NCBI GenBank assembly: GCA_043765495.1
Contig: JAYUJA010000008.1
Location: forward strand, 1 to 44,986
Length of the DNA stretch: 44,986 nt
Direction: 5' to 3'
Source: Bacteroidia bacterium
Lineage (GTDB): Bacteria; Bacteroidota; Bacteroidia; JAYUJA01
Shown: positions 1,518-19,109 of the stretch, piece by piece
Position numbering within the stretch: the stretch's first letter is position 1
Layout of the letters: every line of letters begins with the position of its first letter
The notes under the pieces: generated by a model
The model's input: only the letters and a program-made list of their open reading frames with translations
What the model was told of the DNA's origin: nothing
The model's database searches: none
Translations under genes and position numbers: made by a program

Positions 1518-1570
1518 TATTTACCATTGATTTCGTAATACAACCAACGATACGAAAATGAATGGTAAAT
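1518..1570 (+). promoter_or_regulatory. Long imperfect inverted repeat/hairpin in the operon leader
   Basis: TATTTACCATTGATTTCGTA (1518-1537) pairs with TACGAAAATGAATGGTAAAT (1551-1570) with one indel and one mismatch. The loop is 13 nt. Confidence 0.5.
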
Positions 1571-1697
1571 CACCCCCTTATGCAAATCAATAGAGTTGCA
1601 ATCCAACGTATAAAGGTCAACGCTTTACAGCACATTTACTTTGCCTTAACAGCACAATATCATACTCGACAATCTTAAATTAATAAAAGAGAAATAA

Positions 1698-2420
1698 ATG
1701 TCAGGAACAAAGAAAGAAAGCCATTGGATTCCATTAGCTGACCTTATGACAGTTCTAATGGTAATTTTTCTGTTTATGTCTATCTCTTATATGGCATTAA
1801 TGGAAAAGCGACAAAAGGAACAAAATCAAATATTCAAGGATTATGAAGAATCAAAAGTGGATTTATACAACGAATTAAACGAAGCTTTCAAAAACGATTT
1901 TGCAAAATGGGATTTAAAATTGGACAACGACTTATCAATAAAATTTACAAATCCACAAGTTCTTTTTGGAACAGGAAGTGCAGAAATTACAGAACATTTT
2001 CAGAGCATATTAACAGATTTTCTTCCTAAATACCTTTCAGTTGTTTTACAAGAAAAGTACAAAGAAAAAATTGCTGAAATCAGAATTGAAGGGCACACAG
2101 ACACGAAACCAATCGGACTATCAGGTGATCCTTACATAAACAATATGAAACTTTCACAAGATAGAGCAAGAAATGTTTTAGGTTTTCTTAGACAACAAGA
2201 TTGTTTTATTAATCTTGAAACAATTAAAAAAGATAGGTTACAGTATTGGCTTACAGCCAATGGTCTTTCATATGGCAGAGCGGTTGATAGGGATTTTAAG
2301 ATTTCCTATGATAGTAAACAACCTATTGACAATAATAAATCAAGAAGGGTTGAATTTAGGATTGTAACAACCAGTGAAGCTATTATTAACGAAGCACTTA
2401 AAAACATTGAAGCGAAATGA
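1698..2420 (+). CDS. MotB/OmpA-family stator anchor protein (ZorB-like)
   Basis: The N-terminal TM helix carries the conserved Asp (WIPLADLMTVLMVIFLF; D15 at 1740-1742). The OmpA-like C-terminus has RIEGHTDT, LSQDRARNV and SRRVEFRI. There is an ATGA overlap with the next ORF. Confidence 0.8.
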   Translation: MSGTKKESHWIPLADLMTVLMVIFLFMSISYMALMEKRQKEQNQIFKDYEESKVDLYNELNEAFKNDFAKWDLKLDNDLSIKFTNPQVLFGTGSAEITEHFQSILTDFLPKYLSVVLQEKYKEKIAEIRIEGHTDTKPIGLSGDPYINNMKLSQDRARNVLGFLRQQDCFINLETIKKDRLQYWLTANGLSYGRAVDRDFKISYDSKQPIDNNKSRRVEFRIVTTSEAIINEALKNIEAK

Positions 2421-2755
2421 ACCTAGTTGAAATATTTATTACTATCGTATTATTTTCATATTTAATTTATGGAATCTATGTACTCAATATTGCGAAAAAA
2501 GACTACAGTCAAGTAAATCTAAATGACTTGGATTTAATTCCATCAATGTTTACGACAATCGGAATTTTAGGAACATTTGGCGGTATTGCTTATGGCTTAT
2601 GGTTCTTTAATCCTGAAGACATTGAAAAAAGTATTCCTACATTATTACAAGGATTGAAAACTGCATTTTTTGCATCTATCGCTGGAATAGCTCTGTCAAT
2701 TATTTTCTCAAAGCGAATATCTTTTGTTAAAAACAAAAATGAAAAAGCGTTTTAA
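2417..2755 (+). CDS. Minimal MotA/ExbB/TolQ-type proton-channel module with 3 predicted TM helices (ZorA-like N-terminal part). The frame breaks at an A5 tract.
   Basis: IGILGTFGGIAYGL and LLQGLKTAFFASIAGIALSIIF resemble the two signature helices of MotA_ExbB proteins. The ORF ends 10 nt after the frame of the downstream tail ORF opens. Confidence 0.7.
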   Translation: MNLVEIFITIVLFSYLIYGIYVLNIAKKDYSQVNLNDLDLIPSMFTTIGILGTFGGIAYGLWFFNPEDIEKSIPTLLQGLKTAFFASIAGIALSIIFSKRISFVKNKNEKAF

Positions 2756-2925
2756 GCGATGAAACAAAAGCCATAAATAAACTAATTGAAGCAATTGAAG
2801 AATTAAGAAATGATTTCTCTATTACTAACGAAAATGGCAATAAAATCAAAGCAGGAAATGTATTTCGTGACATCTATAAGGAATCAACAAAACAATCAAA
2901 TGCACTTCAAACTTTTTCAAGTGAT

Positions 2926-3942
2926 TTGGCATTAACTATTTCTGCAGGATTTGAAGAAATACTAAATAATCCAAACGAAGGAGTAGTAGCAGAATTAAAA
3001 TTAGTAAAGGCAGAAATAGAAAGCCTTGGAAAGAAATTACAAGACCCAGCTACCGATATGACGCAAAATATTGTAAAAGAATTGCAGGAATCAATGGGTA
3101 AAATGATTGAAGAATTTAAAACTTCAATGAGTGGCGACACCAAAAATGAAATGGAACATTTAGCAAAACTTCTCGCACAGGCGGGCGGTTCGCTAACTGA
3201 CTTTCCAATGAAATTGCAAAATATGACAGATAATCTAAATGAAAATTTCAGGGGGTTACAAGATGTTGTAAAACAAATTTCTCAACAAACTCTTTCTCAA
3301 TCAGAAGATTCTACTAATGCAATGAAAAAGCAAGTGGAAGAAATGAGCGAAATTTTAAGAACTAAAGTAGGAGATTTACAAAGTGGTCAACAATCTCTTT
3401 TAACAGAGCAATCTAAAAATTTACAAGTTTCACAGAATTTATTGAGTGCATTCAATACAAGCATTGAAAATATGAATGACTTATCCATAGGCGTAACACA
3501 AAGTATTAAAAATTTAAATGAAGCTCAAGCAGCACTAGCAACTACAATCTCAAATTTCAGAAATGCTTCTCAGGAAATCAATACATCATCAAGTAAGTTT
3601 GGAGAAACGCAACTATTATTCTCACAACACTCGAATGAATTTTTGCAAAATAATTCAAGTACCATAGTTGAGATTCAAAAATCTTTAGTAAAAGCAAAAG
3701 ATGTATCCGCTGATTACGCACAAAAGTTTGAAATCATTGAAAAAGGATTGCAAGGGATTTTCTCACAAATTCAAATAGGACTGGAGCAATATAAGAACAC
3801 CGTTGGTAATAATTTAGAGACCATTTTAGGTGAATATACTCAAAGCTTAACAAAAGCAACTGAATCTCTTGCGAGTGCAACAGAATTACAAAGCGAATCA
3901 ATCAAGGATTTAGAGGACGAAATAAAAAGATTAAAATCATAA
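2926..3942 (+). CDS. Q/E/K/N/L-rich tail predicted to be a long helix or coiled coil (ZorA-like C-terminal part)
   Basis: The ORF-track start is a TTG, but this frame is already stop-free from 2743 (61 further codons, KSVLSDETKAINKLIEAIEELRNDF...). The composition is proline-poor and heptad-like with no recognisable enzymatic motifs. Confidence 0.65.
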   Translation: MALTISAGFEEILNNPNEGVVAELKLVKAEIESLGKKLQDPATDMTQNIVKELQESMGKMIEEFKTSMSGDTKNEMEHLAKLLAQAGGSLTDFPMKLQNMTDNLNENFRGLQDVVKQISQQTLSQSEDSTNAMKKQVEEMSEILRTKVGDLQSGQQSLLTEQSKNLQVSQNLLSAFNTSIENMNDLSIGVTQSIKNLNEAQAALATTISNFRNASQEINTSSSKFGETQLLFSQHSNEFLQNNSSTIVEIQKSLVKAKDVSADYAQKFEIIEKGLQGIFSQIQIGLEQYKNTVGNNLETILGEYTQSLTKATESLASATELQSESIKDLEDEIKRLKS

Positions 3943-3946
3943 AATA

Positions 3947-5374
3947 ATGAGAAGTGCATCTGAAATATTGAATTTTAATTTCTCACCTACTACGTTTCAG
4001 CAGTCGGCTAATAAGGCAATTTCAGCAATAACTATTCATCAGATTGAAAATAGAATTGCACAGTTAAAGAGTATAAATGAAAAAGTGGGAAATGTATCAT
4101 TTGCTTTTGATGACGATAGCTTAAAATCAAAAACATTCAAAAAATTTAAATTCTCATTTTCAAATAACAAGCAATCTTTTACAAAAAGAGAATTAAGAGC
4201 ACTCATTTATGGATTAGATTATTCAGAAAATAATTTTACAAACATATTTAGTAGCGAGCTTGAAATGGCTTATGCCCTAGAGCTATTGGATTCAAGTTGG
4301 CGAGAATTATTTTTAAATGGGTTGATACTTTTCTTATTTAAGAACTGGGAGTCTAAAAATTTCCAATCGATAAATCAGTTGAGAGATTTTATTACTAAAC
4401 ACCTAGAAAACTATTCAGGTAACAATAAAAAGATATTAAATTTCAAGCGAATTCAAGCGAATTTCATTGTGGATAATGGGAATGAAGTACTAGGTTTAAC
4501 ATTGGCAAGAATGAATAAACCAATTCAAGAAGCCCCCAAAATATTGGATGTACCAGAATCTTGGTTTTCGTATTCATATTTTTCAAAAGTAATAGTTGCA
4601 TACTACGAAAAGAATAAAGCGAATATTATCAATGAAATAGAGAATCTGAATGAAGTTTTATTAAAAAATAATAGTTCAATCACAAGTAAAAGATTAGTCA
4701 GTAAAATCATTATTCAAGCAAATCAACTAGCATTTGCAACTTTACAAGACAGATTAAAAAAAATTGCATTCACGCAAATTGGCGACCCAAGTAATGTATC
4801 AAATTGGATAGCTTTTGAAAATGCAACAGAAATTGAGAAAGAAGAATTATTAGAAGCAAGAAATATTCTTGATGAATGGATAGCCAAACAATTTATTGAT
4901 ATTTTCTTTAGAGTTTGTATTAATGATGAAAGAAGAAAACATTTTTGGCTTAAGATTGCATCAAAAAATAAGGTTTCTTTTAAAGTTTACGGGCCTCTAC
5001 ATATAAAATCCATTTTAAAACGAGACGAAAAAGTTGCAGAATATGTTGATGCAAGGTTTGAATCTGTTTCTAGTAGGCGAGATGTTTCTGCATTTATTCT
5101 TTATATTGGAAATTATATGTTAATTGAATTTAGTGATGCGGGATATGCTTTTTATGCTTATAAAATAAATGGAACAAGCAAGCCACACTTGAATTATCGA
5201 TTGGAAAGTGTAGATGAATTAAGAAACGGCTCAATGCCAATGCTTGTATATCGTACTGGATATAATATTAACGACACTAATGTAGAAGGTCGTTTAACGC
5301 ATAATGACGGTGATTTAAATTGGGAACAAGTTTTTGAATATTGGTTTAAAAATATAGCTAGAATAAATGTTTAA
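3947..5374 (+). CDS. ZorC-position protein, possibly an EH-signature-domain protein
   Basis: It starts 4 nt after the tail ORF and overlaps the SNF2 gene by 8 nt. The C-terminal block is FWLKIASKNKVSFKVYGP...AFILYIGNYMLIEFSDAGYAFYAYK. The assignment rests mainly on gene context, not on a motif I can verify. Confidence 0.5.
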   Translation: MRSASEILNFNFSPTTFQQSANKAISAITIHQIENRIAQLKSINEKVGNVSFAFDDDSLKSKTFKKFKFSFSNNKQSFTKRELRALIYGLDYSENNFTNIFSSELEMAYALELLDSSWRELFLNGLILFLFKNWESKNFQSINQLRDFITKHLENYSGNNKKILNFKRIQANFIVDNGNEVLGLTLARMNKPIQEAPKILDVPESWFSYSYFSKVIVAYYEKNKANIINEIENLNEVLLKNNSSITSKRLVSKIIIQANQLAFATLQDRLKKIAFTQIGDPSNVSNWIAFENATEIEKEELLEARNILDEWIAKQFIDIFFRVCINDERRKHFWLKIASKNKVSFKVYGPLHIKSILKRDEKVAEYVDARFESVSSRRDVSAFILYIGNYMLIEFSDAGYAFYAYKINGTSKPHLNYRLESVDELRNGSMPMLVYRTGYNINDTNVEGRLTHNDGDLNWEQVFEYWFKNIARINV

Positions 5375-7277
5375 ACATACACACAACAATAGCTTTTTTT
5401 CATTTTACTTTCTAAACGAATTGGGAAGCAAAACACCTGTTTTACAATGGGAAAAATTACAATTAGATTTTTTATCTCAACTTGCTATTTTAAACGAATT
5501 ACGAGATAATGGTCTAGCTGATTATACGGAATATTCTTGTGAGGTTGAGAGTCTAGAAATTCTAAAGCTAAGCGATATTGACAGACAGATTTTAGAGTTA
5601 CCTAATAGTTATCCCTATGAAATATTTATAGAATCTGACGGAGTGCTTTCCCAAAATACTTTTAAGTTCAAATACGGTTTCTATGATTTTAGTCCTAATG
5701 GCATAAGACTAAAAACAAAGAGGAATGGTGCAGTTATATTTGTGGACGATACTGAATATCTACTATCTGAAAATCAATACAAAATATGTGAAGCTATTGA
5801 AGATTTCAATAATTTAGTTGAATCGCAAAAAGGAAATGTAATCAACCTTAAAAAACTATCAGAACTAAAATCACTTTCTAATGAAAGTGGGTTAATGTTA
5901 GAACATTTTTTGAACAATCAAGAATTATTTATTCCTGAAAAAATCAAACTAGATATTGATTTTAAAAATGGTTCTCTTGAAATATTTCCAATAGTAGATA
6001 TTTCCAATCCAGCAGGATTTATCACCACATTTGACAGATTGCCAACTGTTAGAGATGTTTATCCGATTTCAGGAAATAATGGAGAGACGACAAGGGTAGT
6101 AATTTCAGAAAATCAAAAAACAGAATTAAAAAAGATAAAAAGTAAAAGAAAAATTTCAGACCGTGAATCAATACAAGAAATAATAGAACATCCTGAGTTG
6201 TTTTTTGATGATAATGAAATTGATTTTACAGTTTTTTATAGTGACAGAGTAAAGGAAATTGGAGTGTATAGTCCAAAGTTCTATCCTTTTGCAAGTCCTT
6301 ATAAATCGCAATGGATTCCTGGAATAGTGGTTAAGGACAAAGTACACGGAGAAAAAAGAATCTATTTTAAATCGCCTGAAAGACTTTTTGATTTTATAGA
6401 GCAAAAAGAAAAAGCAGTAAAAGAAAAGAAGCAAACGGTCCAATGGGAAGAAACAGAAATCCCAATTGAAGATGCTGAAAAGTTTATTCAAACAGCTAGA
6501 AAACAATTCGAAAATCCAAACAAACCTGTTAAGCAAGAAAAGAAAACAGACCAAGAAGTACTAGTTATAAAAGAAAATGCTGAGCTAACAGAGTTTAGCA
6601 ATGGCAATGAATTACCCGAAAATTTAAAGCATAGCTTTTACGAAATACCCAATTTAAACAGCGGTATAAGTTTAATGGAGCATCAAAAGGAAGGTATTTC
6701 TTGGTTACAATCATTATTCAAAGAAAATTTTGCAGGTGGCTTACTTGCTGATGATATGGGACTTGGTAAAACATTGCAATTGCTATATTTTATTGAGTGG
6801 CACAGTCAACATTGTAACAATAATAAGCCTTATTTAATTGTTGCACCTGTTAGTTTATTAGAAAATTGGGAAAACGAGTATCAGAAATTTTTTAGTCTGA
6901 AAAATTTGCTGCTACTCAAATTGTATGGTTCTGTTTCATTAACCAAGGAAAATAATCCTATACAAAACCAACAAGATGCGAAGCGACTTCAATCCAAACA
7001 AATAATATTAACCAATTACGAAACAATACGAGAGTATCAAATTAGTTTAGGACTTGTTGATTTTGCCGTAATCGCCCTTGATGAAGCACAAAAAATAAAA
7101 ACGCCAGGAACGCAAATAACCAATGCAAGCAAGGCATTAAAGGCAGATTTTAAAATAGCAATGACAGGAACGCCAGTGGAAAATACATTAGTAGATATTT
7201 GGTGTTTGATGGATTTTGCAGTTCTAGGTCTTTTAGGAAATGCAAAAGATTTTGCTAAAAATACCAAAAACCATTAA
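5367..7277 (+). CDS. SNF2-family ATPase, N-terminal part (ZorD-like). The frame breaks at an A5 tract.
   Basis: About 430 aa of unassigned N-terminal sequence come first. The helicase motifs follow: GLGKT (6759-6773), DEAQ (7080-7091) and MTGTPVEN. The ORF stops right after LMDFAVLGLLGNAKDFAK, in the middle of the conserved SNF2 block. Confidence 0.8.
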   Translation: MFKHTHNNSFFSFYFLNELGSKTPVLQWEKLQLDFLSQLAILNELRDNGLADYTEYSCEVESLEILKLSDIDRQILELPNSYPYEIFIESDGVLSQNTFKFKYGFYDFSPNGIRLKTKRNGAVIFVDDTEYLLSENQYKICEAIEDFNNLVESQKGNVINLKKLSELKSLSNESGLMLEHFLNNQELFIPEKIKLDIDFKNGSLEIFPIVDISNPAGFITTFDRLPTVRDVYPISGNNGETTRVVISENQKTELKKIKSKRKISDRESIQEIIEHPELFFDDNEIDFTVFYSDRVKEIGVYSPKFYPFASPYKSQWIPGIVVKDKVHGEKRIYFKSPERLFDFIEQKEKAVKEKKQTVQWEETEIPIEDAEKFIQTARKQFENPNKPVKQEKKTDQEVLVIKENAELTEFSNGNELPENLKHSFYEIPNLNSGISLMEHQKEGISWLQSLFKENFAGGLLADDMGLGKTLQLLYFIEWHSQHCNNNKPYLIVAPVSLLENWENEYQKFFSLKNLLLLKLYGSVSLTKENNPIQNQQDAKRLQSKQIILTNYETIREYQISLGLVDFAVIALDEAQKIKTPGTQITNASKALKADFKIAMTGTPVENTLVDIWCLMDFAVLGLLGNAKDFAKNTKNH

Positions 7278-7351
7278 ATGATGAAGGCACAGACATCAAA
7301 GTCTTAACGGAACAACTTCGGAATAACATTGGTGTATTTATCAAAAGGAGA

Positions 7352-8635
7352 TTGAAAAGTGATGTCGTAAAAGATTTACCAAACAAACACGACAATGCTA
7401 ATTCAAGAATTAAAGAAGAAATGCCATTTAAGCAGTTGGAGCGTTATAAACAAGAAATTGAATTGGTCAATAATTCTGAATTAGAAGGTATAGCTAAAAG
7501 AAATCAAATTCTTAAATCTTTATGGGCAGTTCGCGATATCTCAGACCATCCCGATTTAGTTGACAACAAAATATTAGAAATACCTACAGGTATGCTTATT
7601 GACAAATCAGCAAAATTACAAATTACTATAGGTATTTTAGCAGATATAGAATCTAAAAGCGAAAAAGCCATAATATTTGCAGACAGAAGAGAAACGCAAA
7701 AAATGTTACAAAAAATTGTTTTTGATACTTTTAAAATTTTCACAAGCATTATAAATGGTGACACACCTGTAACAAAGCAACTTGAAGGTAAATCAGCATT
7801 AAGCAGACAGCAAACAATTGATCGTTTTCAATCCCAAGAAGGATTTAATGTAATCATTATGTCGCCAATTGCAGCTGGTGTAGGGCTGAACGTAACCAAA
7901 GCAAACCATATCATCCATTATACAAGGCATTGGAATCCTGCAAAAGAAAATCAAGCAACTGACCGAGCATACAGAATAGGACAACAAAAAGAGGTTTTTG
8001 TGTATTACCCAATGGCTGTTTTTCCAAAAGAAATGCAAGATGAAAATGGTAATAGGTTAAAATCTTTTGATGAAGTTCTCGACTTACTCTTAGTAAATAA
8101 AAATGCATTAGCAAGTAACGCCTTGTTCCCGACAGAGCAAGCAGAAATAACACCTGACGAACTATTTGGAAACATATTTGGAACAAAATTGGAAACTAAA
8201 TCAAAGTCATTGTCATTGCAGGACATTGACAGATTAAATCCCAATTTATTTGAAGCAAGTATTGCAGCACTTTATAAAAAACAAGATTTTGACATTTATT
8301 TAACCCCTTACTCAAACGACAAAGGTGTTGATGTTGTAGTTCTCAAAAATGGAGAGAACTATCTTATTCAGGTTAAGCAGACAAAGTCGTTAGTTGGAAT
8401 TGATGCAATACAGGAAATTTATACAGCCAAAAATTATTACGAAAGTAAATTTAATGAGAAATTCAATTTACTTATCATAACAAATAATGATTATAGTTCA
8501 TCAGCGAAAATATTAGCTAAGTCCAACAATATTCAACTATTTAATCGTAATCAATTAGAAAATCTCATTAATACTAACGACATAACAATTCAGGAAATTA
8601 ATAAAATAGAATCTCAACGAATGGAACGAGTATAG
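7352..8635 (+). CDS. SNF2-family ATPase C-terminal lobe fused to an Mrr-like restriction-endonuclease domain (ZorD-like C-terminal part)
   Basis: The frame is open from 7259 (KYQKPLNDEGTDIKVLTEQLRNNIGVFIKRRLKSDV...). The helicase C motifs are SPIAAGVGLN and QATDRAYRIGQ (7952-7984). The nuclease core is DKGVDVVV (8318-8341) and IQVKQ (8366-8380). Confidence 0.8.
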   Translation: MKSDVVKDLPNKHDNANSRIKEEMPFKQLERYKQEIELVNNSELEGIAKRNQILKSLWAVRDISDHPDLVDNKILEIPTGMLIDKSAKLQITIGILADIESKSEKAIIFADRRETQKMLQKIVFDTFKIFTSIINGDTPVTKQLEGKSALSRQQTIDRFQSQEGFNVIIMSPIAAGVGLNVTKANHIIHYTRHWNPAKENQATDRAYRIGQQKEVFVYYPMAVFPKEMQDENGNRLKSFDEVLDLLLVNKNALASNALFPTEQAEITPDELFGNIFGTKLETKSKSLSLQDIDRLNPNLFEASIAALYKKQDFDIYLTPYSNDKGVDVVVLKNGENYLIQVKQTKSLVGIDAIQEIYTAKNYYESKFNEKFNLLIITNNDYSSSAKILAKSNNIQLFNRNQLENLINTNDITIQEINKIESQRMERV

Positions 8636-9195
8636 CCAACGCTTTTGGTGGCACATTTGCATTTTTTGTAACTGCACATACCAACTCTAAAAAATAGTTA
8701 ATGTAAAATCTAAAATGAATGCATAAACAACCTATTATATTGTTTTGTTAAGAATATCATTATGAATACTTTGTGTGTTATTTGTTGAGCAACTAAAATT
8801 AAGTGTGGGTTGGTAATCCTGTTTTTAACAATTATTTTCAAAATTATATACCTAATAATGAATTATTTATACTGTATCTATAAATTAAATTTGCATTTTA
8901 AAACAGAATAAACTTTATTTGCATTTATAAATATTCCTACCTAATTAAATATATCAGGCTTATATAAGAAAAATCTACTTTTTTTTATTTCATTATCTAA
9001 ATACACTGCTATTTAAAGCCTATACTTTTACTCCATTTTTCTGTTTTAAAATACCCCCCTTTACTTATTCTACAAAATTACTTTTTGTACTCTTAAAAAC
9101 CGTTCCTCTATTGCTATACTTTTACATTATTTGTAAAACCAAACCCCTTATGTAAAAACTTCTACTCTTTATTCACTTAAAAACGAGTAGTTCTT

Positions 9196-16114: not shown

Positions 16115-16468
16115 TTATTTAAGTATTTTGTTTTTTAAGGTTTGAAATTCTTCTTCTGTTAGTAAGTTACTATCTTTTAGTTTTTGTAATTTTTCTAGTT
16201 CTTCTACCACAGATGTATATGCTTGGGGTGGTGTAGATAGGTTGTTTAGTGATGTTTGTTGAATCATCTGCATTTGTAACATTTGTTTTTTATACAACTC
16301 GTCTTGTTTGTTTTTAGATATTAAAGTAATAATAAGCCCAATAAGAGGACTTAATAATAAAGAAAGAATAAATGCTCCGAAAAAAGTTATCCTTCTTCCT
16401 GATCCGATTAGTCCTACTATAAAGCTTAAAATTAGCCACAGAGGAATTATTGTTAGTATTGTTCCCAT
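16115..16468 (-). CDS. Small membrane protein with a C-terminal SHOCT-like domain
   Basis: Two N-terminal TM helices are present. The C-terminus VVEELEKLQKLKDSNLLTEEEFQTLKNKIL matches the SHOCT pattern. The gene lies only 15 nt downstream of the preceding gene. Confidence 0.65.
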   Translation of the reverse strand: MGTILTIIPLWLILSFIVGLIGSGRRITFFGAFILSLLLSPLIGLIITLISKNKQDELYKKQMLQMQMIQQTSLNNLSTPPQAYTSVVEELEKLQKLKDSNLLTEEEFQTLKNKILK

Positions 16469-16483
16469 TTTAGTATAAAGTTG

Positions 16484-16930
16484 TTATTTATAAATTTGAT
16501 GTTTCCTATCTAGCCAAATTAGGCAGAATGCTGTTCTTGTTCTAAATCCGTGTACTCGTGCTACTTGTGATATTCGTAATTCAAAAAATGTAGTGTCTTG
16601 GCTTAATGAATTTACAATATCTTGGTTAGGTAGTAGGCTTGTTTGTTTGCAGATGGTGTAGCCCAATCCTGATTTATTGATGCTGCCTCCGCTTTTGTAA
16701 ATATCTGTCCAAGTTGTAGTTCTTAATTTCTCAACAAATGCAGTGAATAGTTTTAATTCATCTTGTGACCACTCTGAAAGGCATTGGTGTTTATGGTCGT
16801 AATATTTCAAATAAACGTATGCTGGATTATTATTGCTATCTTTTTCAAAGCCTAAAATTTCAGCTTCTTTTTCATTTAGGTATTGAAGTTGGTTGTCTAA
16901 ATTTGCTACTTTTTTGTTAATTGATTTCAT
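16484..16930 (-). CDS. Hypothetical 148-aa protein, candidate toxin partner of the Panacea-domain antitoxin
   Basis: It overlaps the upstream DUF4065 gene by 14 nt. The C-terminus FELRISQVARVHGFRTRTAFCLIWLDRKHQIY loosely resembles RelE/ParE-fold C-termini. This is a weak assignment based on pattern only. Confidence 0.6.
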   Translation of the reverse strand: MKSINKKVANLDNQLQYLNEKEAEILGFEKDSNNNPAYVYLKYYDHKHQCLSEWSQDELKLFTAFVEKLRTTTWTDIYKSGGSINKSGLGYTICKQTSLLPNQDIVNSLSQDTTFFELRISQVARVHGFRTRTAFCLIWLDRKHQIYK

Positions 16931-17402
16931 TGCTGGTATTTCTTTCGTACAGTTTGGTATAGAAGTCTTTCATCGTAGCTTTGGAAATTGGGGTGGTACT
17001 TCGCATTTCTAGCGAGATACCGCCTCTTGCTTCTATCCAAGGCAGCTCTGAATGAGTTAATCTTTCTAGGTATTTAGCTGATTTTTCGCCATATACATTT
17101 TTTATATCTTCTAATAAGGTTACTACTTCATTTGTAAGGTTATTGTCACAACTACAAATAGGAATTGTATCGTAGCTGTATTGCTTATAAGATTCGTAGA
17201 TAGAAGGAAGAACTGGACCATGTGACCAAGCTTGAAAGTCTTCTTGAAAAAGTGATTTATCTAATAAAACTAAACTCCAAGATTGTGCATAGAACATTAG
17301 TTTTTGTAGTTTTAGATGCGTAATGGAATCTCCAGCTTCTCTATCTATGGTACAAGTAAAGTAATTAGCAATTTCTGACGGATTTATGTTAAGTGATTCC
17401 AT
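16917..17402 (-). CDS. Panacea domain (DUF4065, SocA/GepA-like) antitoxin-type protein
   Basis: ITHLKLQKLMFYAQSWSLVLLDKSLFQEDFQAWSHGPVLPSIYESYKQY is a near-textbook DUF4065 core. Confidence 0.85.
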   Translation of the reverse strand: MESLNINPSEIANYFTCTIDREAGDSITHLKLQKLMFYAQSWSLVLLDKSLFQEDFQAWSHGPVLPSIYESYKQYSYDTIPICSCDNNLTNEVVTLLEDIKNVYGEKSAKYLERLTHSELPWIEARGGISLEMRSTTPISKATMKDFYTKLYERNTSNEIN

Positions 17403-17647: not shown

Positions 17648-18952
17648 TTATATTGAAGTAGGGAAAAACTTTGAAAACATATCTTCTATTGGATCTTTTG
17701 TAGTTGTATCATTGAATTTATTAAGTATTGCTAATGTTTCTCTATATTCCATTGCTTCTGGTAGTTTAATAAATTCAGCATCTAACCCTAGTTCTTTTAT
17801 TTTATTCTCTATTTCTTCAATACTGATATTAAAAAATTCTCTTTTAGGATTAATCATATTTATTTTTTTGTCAGAAAATGCTTTGTGTAATTCATTTTCA
17901 AGTTTTGGAGCATCATTTGAGAAAATCATTGAATGAATATCAAATTGAAATGGAACAGAGGCATCTCCTAGTTCTTTTACTCTATCAGTAGGTTCTAATC
18001 TCCTTGTCATACCAATCTTAAATACATTTTCTCCAAATGATCCAATATTAGATATTACATATACATGACCTCTTTTAGTTTGTTGGGCCATTGATAATGC
18101 TCTTTGTTTTTTATCTTGTGCTTCTTTAAGTTCTTGTTCTAATAATTCTATCTTGATTTGTAATTTTTGTTGTTTATCGCCTGTTGTATCTGCAACCTCT
18201 TTCCTTGCTTTATCTAATGCTTTTTGATAATTTGTTTCTTCTTTTTCAGCGTCTTTTTGTGCTTGTTCATATTCTCTTCTAGCTCGTTCTTCTTCTCTTA
18301 ATTCTTCTTGTGCTGCTCTTAATTCTTCTTTTTCATTTTGTCGTTTTAATTGGTATTCGTATTCAAGTACAAGTTCTTGTATTTTTAAATTTTTATACTC
18401 ATTCTCAATATATGTTTTTTGATTCTCTCCTAACTTATTAATAGATTCAAATGCTTTGTTTATACGTTCCTGCATTTGACTAACATTGTTCCATTTTACT
18501 TTTGAAATTAGAGTATCGCATTCTCCATTAAATGCTCTTAACATCAATTTTATGAATTTTTTTGTAATTGCTGTACCTTTTGCTTCGCTTCCATCAACAC
18601 TCCATTTTATAAGACAAGTAGCTGCTTTTTCAGTAGATATTTTTTGTTTTTGAAATTCAATAATTTTATTTTGCTTCGTTCTATAATCATCTGATTTCTC
18701 AAAATCATAAACTGGTATATAAACCCCAAACTCTGATAATTCAAGTTTGTTTTCATATACACTTATTTCTTTTTGTAGATTAGTGTACGTTTTAAGTGCA
18801 TTATTGTAATTATTTTTTAAGTCTTTATAGCTAATTTCAATTTTAGATAGTTCATTTTCTATGTTTGTAATTGGTTTATATCTTTCGAGTTGTAATTTTA
18901 GTTCTTTTATTTCTTCTAATTCTTTCTTTTTTAAGAAGTCAAATAATGCCAT
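17648..18952 (-). CDS. DUF4041 plus T5orf172 (GIY-YIG-superfamily, MUG113-like) domain protein
   Basis: The N-terminal and central parts are coiled-coil-rich (LRAFNGECD...ELVLEYEYQLKRQNEKEELRAAQEELREEE). The C-terminus is HVYVISNIGSFGENVFKIGMTRRLEPTDRVKELGDASVPFQFDIH...LENELHKAF...REFF. The start is set at MALFDFLKK (ATG at 18952) rather than the upstream TTG. Confidence 0.75.
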   Translation of the reverse strand: MALFDFLKKKELEEIKELKLQLERYKPITNIENELSKIEISYKDLKNNYNNALKTYTNLQKEISVYENKLELSEFGVYIPVYDFEKSDDYRTKQNKIIEFQKQKISTEKAATCLIKWSVDGSEAKGTAITKKFIKLMLRAFNGECDTLISKVKWNNVSQMQERINKAFESINKLGENQKTYIENEYKNLKIQELVLEYEYQLKRQNEKEELRAAQEELREEERARREYEQAQKDAEKEETNYQKALDKARKEVADTTGDKQQKLQIKIELLEQELKEAQDKKQRALSMAQQTKRGHVYVISNIGSFGENVFKIGMTRRLEPTDRVKELGDASVPFQFDIHSMIFSNDAPKLENELHKAFSDKKINMINPKREFFNISIEEIENKIKELGLDAEFIKLPEAMEYRETLAILNKFNDTTTKDPIEDMFSKFFPTSI

Positions 18953-19109
18953 AATATAAAAGTTATTAATATGTAAGAGCAGCAAAAGTGTACAATAAAA
19001 TAATACGAAACAAATTTATTTTAATTAGAAAATAAAAATAGACTTATTTATTATCAACACGTTGCAAAGGGTGGGAAAAGTTTATGTAAAATAGTGCGTA
19101 GGTATGTTA

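Follow-up and report, generated by a model that had tools for sequence, protein, structure and literature searches.

A probably inactive Zorya locus of a Bacteroidota lineage with a type II-like motor and type I effectors

Zorya is among the more widespread anti-phage systems. A cluster of genes from a Bacteroidia bacterium raises the question of what kind of Zorya system this is, given its unusual gene order, and whether this copy of it still works. The cluster occupies positions 1698-8635 of the window, by which we mean the whole stretch of DNA that was analysed (44,986 nucleotides; contig JAYUJA010000008.1 of assembly GCA_043765495.1, forward strand). A first-pass annotation, made from the letters of the DNA alone, had described it as a type-I-like Zorya operon. 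Our results suggest that the block is most probably a horizontally acquired Zorya anti-phage system with the type I (ZorC/ZorD) effector class, which belongs to a Bacteroidota-wide lineage with the order zorB-zorA-zorC-zorD, and that this copy is most likely inactive and recently decayed. The label "type-I-like" is apt but needs refinement: ZorB and the ZorA head belong to the type II lineage, and within ZorA only the tail end resembles type I.

The block comprises six open reading frames (ORFs), all on the plus strand: 1698-2420 (240 amino acids), 2417-2755 (112), 2926-3942 (338), 3947-5374 (475), 5367-7277 (636) and 7352-8635 (427). Neighbouring genes are tightly packed, with an ATGA overlap at 2417-2420, a 4-nucleotide gap at 3943-3946 and an 8-nucleotide overlap at 5367-5374. 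The first-pass annotation gave these coordinates and junctions correctly; its six-ORF unit, however, really consists of four genes, of which zorA and zorD are each split. The four protein identities can be assigned because PADLOC profiles, Pfam profiles, sequence searches of solved structures in the PDB and one fold search agree, which supports the four modules proposed at the outset. The Pfam families OmpA, MotA_ExbB, EH_Signature, SNF2-rel_dom, Helicase_C and Mrr_cat all exceed their gathering cut-offs.

The first gene, zorB (1698-2420), is intact and encodes a 240-amino-acid MotB-like stator anchor with one transmembrane helix that carries a conserved aspartate, Asp15, followed by a C-terminal OmpA-like peptidoglycan-binding domain. 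The OmpA domain scores 33 bits, over its cut-off, and MotB_plug reaches 17.4 bits, under its cut-off of 24. Asp15 (codon at 1740-1742) aligns with the conserved aspartate of the solved structures 8VVI, 8QYD and 8VVN, and together with the RIEGHTD and SRRVEF motifs it is invariant throughout the clade. By sequence, ZorB is closer to type II. In PADLOC, the ZorB2 model PDLC00641 matches at 2.7e-81 versus 8e-60 for the best ZorB1 model, and in NCBIfam ZorB2 scores 141 bits versus 50 bits for ZorB1. Against the PDB, the best match is the type II ZorB of S. kujiense (8vvi_A, 9.3e-38, 133 bits), with the type I structures from E. coli (8qyd_F, 7e-6) and Shewanella (8vvn_B, 2.5e-5) at 29 and 27 bits; the identities of the type II structure 8VVI and the type I ZorAB structures are taken from PMC11890865. 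ZorB is 43-44% identical to Spirosoma and Prevotella proteins, 36% identical to E. coli ZorB2 and about 25% identical to canonical type I ZorB, and a neighbour-joining tree puts the lineage's ZorB on the type II side. Among plasmid-borne ZorB relatives found by tblastn, 14 of 15 are 32-44% identical, and the six loci examined among them are zorA-zorB-zorE; the fifteenth, from Polaromonas (25%), belongs to a canonical type I locus. No plasmid-borne relative of ZorC was found by tblastn.

zorC (3947-5374) is intact as well and encodes a 475-amino-acid EH-signature protein, as in type I systems. The Pfam profile EH_Signature (PF15611) matches with 61.4 bits against a cut-off of 27.5 and is covered from position 8 to 421 of 423, and the PADLOC ZorC1 profile matches at 1.8e-16. 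An AlphaFold model of the protein has a pLDDT (predicted local distance difference test) of 85.7; its sole significant fold match in a Foldseek search of the PDB is EcZorC (8R68; E value 1.2e-5, probability 1.00). The residues E394 and H452 are conserved.

zorD (5367-8635) is frameshifted in the window. With one G restored after position 7259 it encodes 1089 amino acids, which comprise an N-terminal domain, an SNF2 ATPase and a C-terminal Mrr-type nuclease. The SNF2-Mrr protein of about 1090 amino acids that the first-pass annotation had described is thus confirmed, and five intact relatives have exactly the repaired length. The PADLOC ZorD1 profile PDLC00631 matches the N-terminal part at 5e-221 and the C-terminal part at 2.2e-151, Pfam recognizes SNF2-rel_dom, Helicase_C and Mrr_cat, and EcZorD (8qy7_A) aligns at 9.5e-125 across residues 289-924. 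The motifs GLGKT (from 6759), DEAQ (7080), QATDRAYRIGQ (7952), DKGVDVVV (8318) and IQVKQ (8366) all lie where they had been annotated, and no damage is seen in GLGKT, DEAQ or the D...QxK motif of the Mrr domain. Thus, the SNF2-family ATPase/nuclease of type I systems is encoded here, in a gene that carries a frameshift.

zorA (2417-3942), between zorB and zorC, is the second frameshifted pseudogene. One G restored after position 2747 yields a 508-amino-acid protein with a MotA/ExbB-type head of three transmembrane helices and a predicted helical tail of about 400 residues, so that the combination of such a head with a long cytoplasmic tail that defines ZorA is present, the helicity of the tail being a prediction. 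In the window, the head ORF (2417-2755, 112 amino acids) spans all three transmembrane helices and stops at a premature TAA, while the tail frame (2743-3942), in the -1 frame relative to the head, is open for 399 codons; the listed tail ORF begins at 2926. The head is compact, with three transmembrane helices and a SIPxLLxGLKTAF loop, and without the N-terminal extension of ZorA1. It matches the ZorA2 model PDLC00635 at 3.6e-32 versus 9e-13 for the best ZorA1 model, type II ZorA in the PDB (8vvi_F) at 2.7e-11 and Pfam MotA_ExbB with 25.0 bits (cut-off 22.9). The tail had been characterized as long, rich in a few polar residues and leucine and poor in proline. This description is accurate: the tail of 403 amino acids is rich in L, S, E, N, K and Q with 0.7% proline, and it matches a PADLOC ZorA model at 3e-12.

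A MotA/MotB-like pair need not belong to a defence system, and the two genes could instead serve motility, transport or envelope maintenance beside an unrelated helicase gene. ZorB does give weak matches to the OmpA-domain models of MotB, MotS and TssL, but the Zorya-specific models score far higher. Moreover, the four genes overlap or lie 4 nucleotides apart, and all relatives whose sequence extends upstream of zorC have the same block, in unrelated contexts. No gene of the flagellar, Tol, Ton or gliding kind is adjacent, and none of the homologous neighbourhoods examined is a motility or transport operon; the homologous loci sit instead amid transposases, conjugative-transposon genes and other defence genes. 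We therefore consider a housekeeping role of the pair extremely improbable. The homology of the Zorya motor to flagellar MotAB and to the 5:2 motors ExbBD and TolQR is distant, comprising the MotA_ExbB and OmpA/MotB domains and the conserved aspartate in the transmembrane helix of the B subunit. The window's proteins differ from these motors in the long ZorA tail, in the lack of rotor, TonB or TolA partners, and in their linkage to DNA-targeting effectors.

The block was then compared with the two Zorya types that it resembles. Type I systems (EcZorI of NCTC9026, with structures 8QYD, 8R68 and 8QY7, and the Shewanella ANA-3 system, 8VVN) have the same four components, namely ZorA with a long tail, ZorB, EH-signature ZorC and SNF2-type ZorD, and the tail end of the window's ZorA is homologous to ZorA1 tail ends. 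The differences are nevertheless clear. The gene order in the window's lineage is B-A-C-D, whereas the type I loci used for comparison are A-B-C-D; the A-B-C-D order was found neither in the window nor in eight relatives. ZorA1 has an N-terminal extension of about 100 residues that the window's ZorA lacks, and the window's ZorA, with 508 amino acids, is shorter than the 607-773 amino acids of type I. In the window's ZorD, the N-terminal domain is shorter and there is an additional Mrr_cat domain absent from EcZorD, although the type I ZorD proteins of Polaromonas and Nitrosospira do carry an Mrr domain. ZorA and ZorB fall outside the ZorA1 and ZorB1 sequence families, with only the last ~180 residues of ZorA being ZorA1-like. 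The NCBIfam equivalog models, which are narrow, were not reached at their cut-offs by any component (ZorB1, 50 versus 400 bits; ZorC, 33 versus 490; ZorD of an intact relative, 575 versus 1500).

With type II systems (zorA-zorB-zorE; S. kujiense 8VVI, E. coli ZorA2/ZorB2/ZorE and the Spirosoma linguale plasmid pSLIN01), the window shares the lineage of ZorB and of the compact ZorA head with three transmembrane helices. It differs in that the A/B order is inverted, that the distal ZorA tail is not matched by ZorA2 profiles, and that the lineage has ZorC and ZorD in place of the HNH effector ZorE. None of the six ORFs matches a ZorE model, while a Prevotella neighbour used for comparison does so at 8.6e-68. 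That neighbour lies on the plasmid of Prevotella sp. E2-28 (L014, 5286-10383), which carries a canonical type II zorA-zorB-zorE locus. The next gene there overlaps and encodes a 622-amino-acid protein annotated as "DNA translocase FtsK", which matches the C-terminal part of SspH (3.2e-20) and may be an extra effector or part of an adjacent system.

The ZorA tail end is where the two types meet. The last 183 residues of ZorA (3391-3939) match only ZorA1 profiles, and the alignments run to the ends of the profiles: PDLC00603 is matched over 671-726 of 727 positions at 2.8e-6 and PDLC00599 over 486-631 of 631 at 3.9e-6, and the NCBIfam ZorA1 alignment covers 446-728 of 729. Conversely, alignments of the lineage's ZorA proteins to the ZorA2 profile PDLC00635 are confined to its first ~250 columns, whereas the type II ZorA of Spirosoma aligns along the entire profile with 577 bits. 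When the 183-residue tail end was searched against 1.84 billion representative proteins, 229 relatives were obtained, 97 of them at 1e-10 or better. Of the 150 listed among these 229, nearly all are proteins of 500-870 amino acids in which the match lies at the C-terminus. In a sample of ten such relatives, eight are ZorA1-type. Of the other two, one joins a ZorA1-like tail to a head that resembles ZorA2, and the last has no ZorA match.

Two of these database proteins deserve mention. P0260 (584 amino acids) is more distant and, like the ZorA of the lineage, pairs a ZorA2-like head with a ZorA1-like tail. In P0243 (702 amino acids), the ZorA tail end is present at 50% identity; the protein has no PADLOC ZorA match at an E value of 1e-5 or below, and its N-terminal part may be of another kind.

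Together, our comparisons show here that, as far as sequence relationships go, ZorB and the ZorA head belong with type II, whereas the final ~180 residues of ZorA and both effectors belong with type I. One possible origin is that the lineage is a natural head/tail chimera, in which a ZorB/ZorA motor of type II origin has a ZorA tail end of type I origin and signals to ZorC and ZorD; we regard the chances of this being so as evenly balanced. Some observations speak against parts of this picture. The hybrid pattern can also be explained by differential divergence of the parts rather than by recombination. An hhalign comparison of tail alignments, with 3-7 sequences each, assigned neither type I nor type II a probability of 20% or more, although this comparison is superseded by the whole-database search with the tail end. 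The global template-modelling score (TM-score) between ZorC and 8R68 is low (0.32/0.38). The mechanism that we outline below is carried over from systems in which ZorB has just 25-43% identity. As for the state of this copy, the window is a metagenome-derived contig and the three assemblies that contain the locus are possibly not independent, so that the three could conceivably share a consensus error, or an intact allele could exist in a minority.

Whether the copy in the window works depends on the two frameshifts. All components of a Zorya system are present here, but not all are intact, with a 1-nucleotide deletion in zorA and another in zorD. Both deletions were called relative to nine intact relatives. 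By DNA alignment with them, one G has been lost from zorA after 2747, where the window reads GAAAAAG-CGTT and the relatives GAAAAAGGAGTT, and one from zorD after 7259, where the window reads AAA-AATA and the relatives AAAGAATA. Frame analysis shows that both breaks are switches to the -1 frame. The repaired proteins fit the lineage closely: ZorA aligns without gaps and at 90% identity to the ZorA (also 508 amino acids) of the closest intact relative (L025), whose ZorD of 1089 amino acids equals the repaired ZorD of the window in length.

If the two gaps were errors of assembly or consensus, or if an intact allele coexisted in the population, the organism would have a functional zorBACD system. 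That both genes are perfectly preserved apart from two single-nucleotide gaps fits this explanation, as do the metagenomic source noted above and the outcome of a search with RpoC, which found no named isolate at 90% identity or more. However, the locus including both deletions is 100% identical in two other metagenome assemblies, one represented by a MEGAHIT-style k141 contig and the other by a separately named scaffold; the source metagenomes are ERZ27314324 and ERZ28574377 (SAMN19433748). In the rest of the 45-kb contig, long genes such as rpoB (1268 amino acids), rpoC (1431 amino acids), tuf and nadE are unbroken, and neither deletion site is a long homopolymer, with GG reduced to G in zorA and a G lost between two short A runs in zorD. 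Because of these three observations, our results suggest that the deletions are real and not artefacts, and an intact system hidden by errors or polymorphism appears unlikely.

Real breaks might still be bypassed or tolerated, through -1 ribosomal slippage at the A-rich sites, reversible phase variation or function as split polypeptides. Both shifts are indeed of the -1 kind, a run of five A residues lies at each site (GAAAAAG at 2741-2747 and TAAAAAT at 7256-7262), and both downstream frames are fully open. Yet the zero frame contains a canonical slippery heptamer (X XXY YYZ) at neither site, and every intact relative encodes the G at both positions, with none frameshifting there. The tracts are moreover too short for slipped-strand phase variation, and the change in zorD is not a change in the number of repeat units. 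Bypass of the breaks as a whole is thus highly unlikely, and programmed frameshifting or phase variation was set aside from the site sequences.

The reading of a decayed copy is therefore retained. In EcZorI, the loss of any single gene abolishes defence. The copy in the window is probably non-functional, because the head of ZorA is cut off from its tail and the SNF2 N-lobe of ZorD from the C-lobe and the nuclease. Its inactivation looks recent, judging from three features of the genes: the motifs are intact, the downstream frames are still open (399 codons in zorA and 458 in zorD), and the private substitutions of the window, as a sign of relaxed selection, are not in excess compared with other divergent members of the lineage. 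The residues kept include D15 of ZorB, GILGTF and GLKTAF of ZorA, E394 and H452 of ZorC, and GLGKT, DEAQ and the Mrr D...QxK motif of ZorD. The broken copy is by itself a small and ordinary example of the decay of a defence system.

To place the locus in its lineage, genomes were scanned with ZorC, which gave eight loci, from Myroides, Emticicia, Kaistella, two Epilithonimonas species, Flavobacterium and two metagenome-assembled genomes (MAGs). The closest intact relative, L025, lies on a 4.9-Mb metagenome contig and has 84.4% nucleotide identity to the window. The order zorB-zorA-zorC-zorD, with each gene in a single frame, is found in L025 and in seven of the eight genome loci, namely those whose sequence includes the region upstream of zorC. 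L009, the eighth, is on a contig of 4.2 kb that contains zorC and zorD only; zorD runs there in one frame up to the contig end. ZorA has 508-511 and ZorD 1087-1128 amino acids across the relatives. The order is a conserved trait of the lineage, not a local rearrangement. The lineage is widespread in Bacteroidota, and fish pathogens, for example Flavobacterium columnare, are among its carriers: named ZorC homologues come from Sphingobacterium, Empedobacter, Pedobacter, Chryseobacterium, Albibacterium, Moheibacter and F. columnare ATCC 23463, and ZorB proteins at least 80% identical to the query form at least 120 clusters at 90% identity.

Two observations concern single members of this set. In the Epilithonimonas loci L006 and L007 (14688-16238), a 516-amino-acid ORF without a Pfam or PADLOC match begins 4 nucleotides past zorD, and it may have an accessory role in the Zorya system of this genus. 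The contigs of L008 and L009 are filed under MAGs labelled "uncultured Rhizobium sp." and "Candidatus Planktophila lacus", labels that probably reflect mis-binning rather than transfer across phyla.

The surroundings and borders of the block bear on its horizontal acquisition. None of the relatives' loci shares flanking genes with the window, nor do the loci have flanking genes in common with one another. The neighbours of the relatives include transposases of the IS3, IS5, IS66 and Tn3 types, the conjugative-transposon gene DUF3408, AraC regulators, UvrD and giant DEAD/MZB helicases. Homology to L025 begins at 1533, to L004 at about 1555 and to L005 at about 1584, so that an upstream leader or promoter region (1533-1697, plus strand) moves with the operon. 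On the other side, a conserved stretch 3' of zorD (8636-8666, plus strand) forms the edge of the shared unit, and homology to the relatives stops 4-31 nucleotides past the zorD stop codon (8639-8666). These limits mark a putative transferred unit from about 1533 to 8639-8666. A metagenome scan for an empty insertion site with the neighbouring sigma factor gene gave only relatives of at most 41% identity; therefore, the island borders rest on the homology limits.

The block had been described as clearly more AT-rich than its flanks. The direction is right and the size modest, with 31.0% guanine plus cytosine (GC) in the block versus 34.7% in the rest of the window; 7.1-kb windows elsewhere in the stretch range from 32.2 to 37.0%, and the flanking genes have 39.5% (alr) and 36.9% (sigma/CCG).

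Scans for sigma-70 promoters and terminators showed no enrichment over shuffled sequences. Two TAnnTTTG motifs of the Bacteroidetes type occur 5' of the leader shared with the relatives, and no promoter was assigned. An Rfam scan found tRNAs only. Weak, AT-rich direct repeats surround the block, at 1406-1445 on one side and at 8643-8666 and 9020-9045 on the other (1412-1431 and 9026-9045, 85%; 1422-1445 and 8643-8666, 75%), possibly by chance. They were not adopted as target-site duplications.

We then propose how the intact relatives may act, by homology to the systems of E. coli, Shewanella and S. kujiense (PMC11946911, PMC11890865) and following the motor-tail-effector model of Hu et al. 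(PMC11946911). ZorA and ZorB would form a 5:2 ion-driven motor in the inner membrane, with ZorB anchored to peptidoglycan and Asp15 coupling the ion flow. Perturbation of the envelope by a phage would switch this motor on, and the signal would travel along the ZorA tail of about 400 residues, which could extend ~60 nm per subunit if it were one continuous helix. The tail end would recruit ZorC, the DNA-binding EH-signature protein, and ZorD, the SNF2 ATPase-nuclease that here has an Mrr domain, and the two together would degrade the incoming phage DNA.

In this lineage, the type of the tail end follows that of the effectors rather than that of the motor head, which fits a role of the tail end as a candidate effector-specific interface. 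In this context, zorC and zorD of P. aeruginosa are reported not to complement the corresponding E. coli deletions (PMC11946911). If the lineage is indeed a chimera, the distal ~180 residues of ZorA would be the module that determines the effectors recruited by a Zorya motor, and motor and effector-coupling modules would be exchangeable in nature and hence engineerable. Thus, it is tempting to regard the lineage as a natural experiment that points to the tail end as the effector-specificity module.

Neither a B-A-C-D order nor a hybrid Zorya is described in Hu et al. (PMC11946911), in Mariano et al., in the PADLOC paper, or in the full texts of the open-access literature and bioRxiv. The layout with a type II-like motor and type I effectors in the order B-A-C-D is thus a variant new to the open-access literature and bioRxiv preprints covered. 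Hu et al. filtered their surveys to the canonical orders zorABCD, zorABE and zorGABF (PMC11946911). Because surveys by canonical order drop the lineage and its proteins fall under the NCBI curated cut-offs, Zorya counts in Bacteroidota may be underestimates.

The rest of the window adds some observations on neighbouring genes; in gene content, as in its relatives, the window resembles Bacteroidota. The gene after zorD encodes a sigma factor. Upstream, the gene annotated as "alr" (1-1193) is the C-terminal part of an 822-amino-acid fusion of MurF (Mur_ligase_M) and alanine racemase (2861-5329 in L001), and the window starts inside this gene.

A second defence system lies 9 kb downstream of Zorya in a patch of 29.8% GC, where a 445-amino-acid protein with DUF4041 and T5orf172/MUG113 domains (17648-18985, minus strand) matches PD-Lambda-1 (PADLOC PDLC03977, 1.4e-175). 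Beside it, also on the minus strand, three small ORFs occupy 16115-17402. They encode a SHOCT-domain protein, a 148-amino-acid product with a weak NsnC match (1.2e-6), whose ORF overlaps the next gene by 14 nucleotides, and a protein with a SocA/Panacea antitoxin domain (3.4e-19), and they look like a toxin-antitoxin pair.

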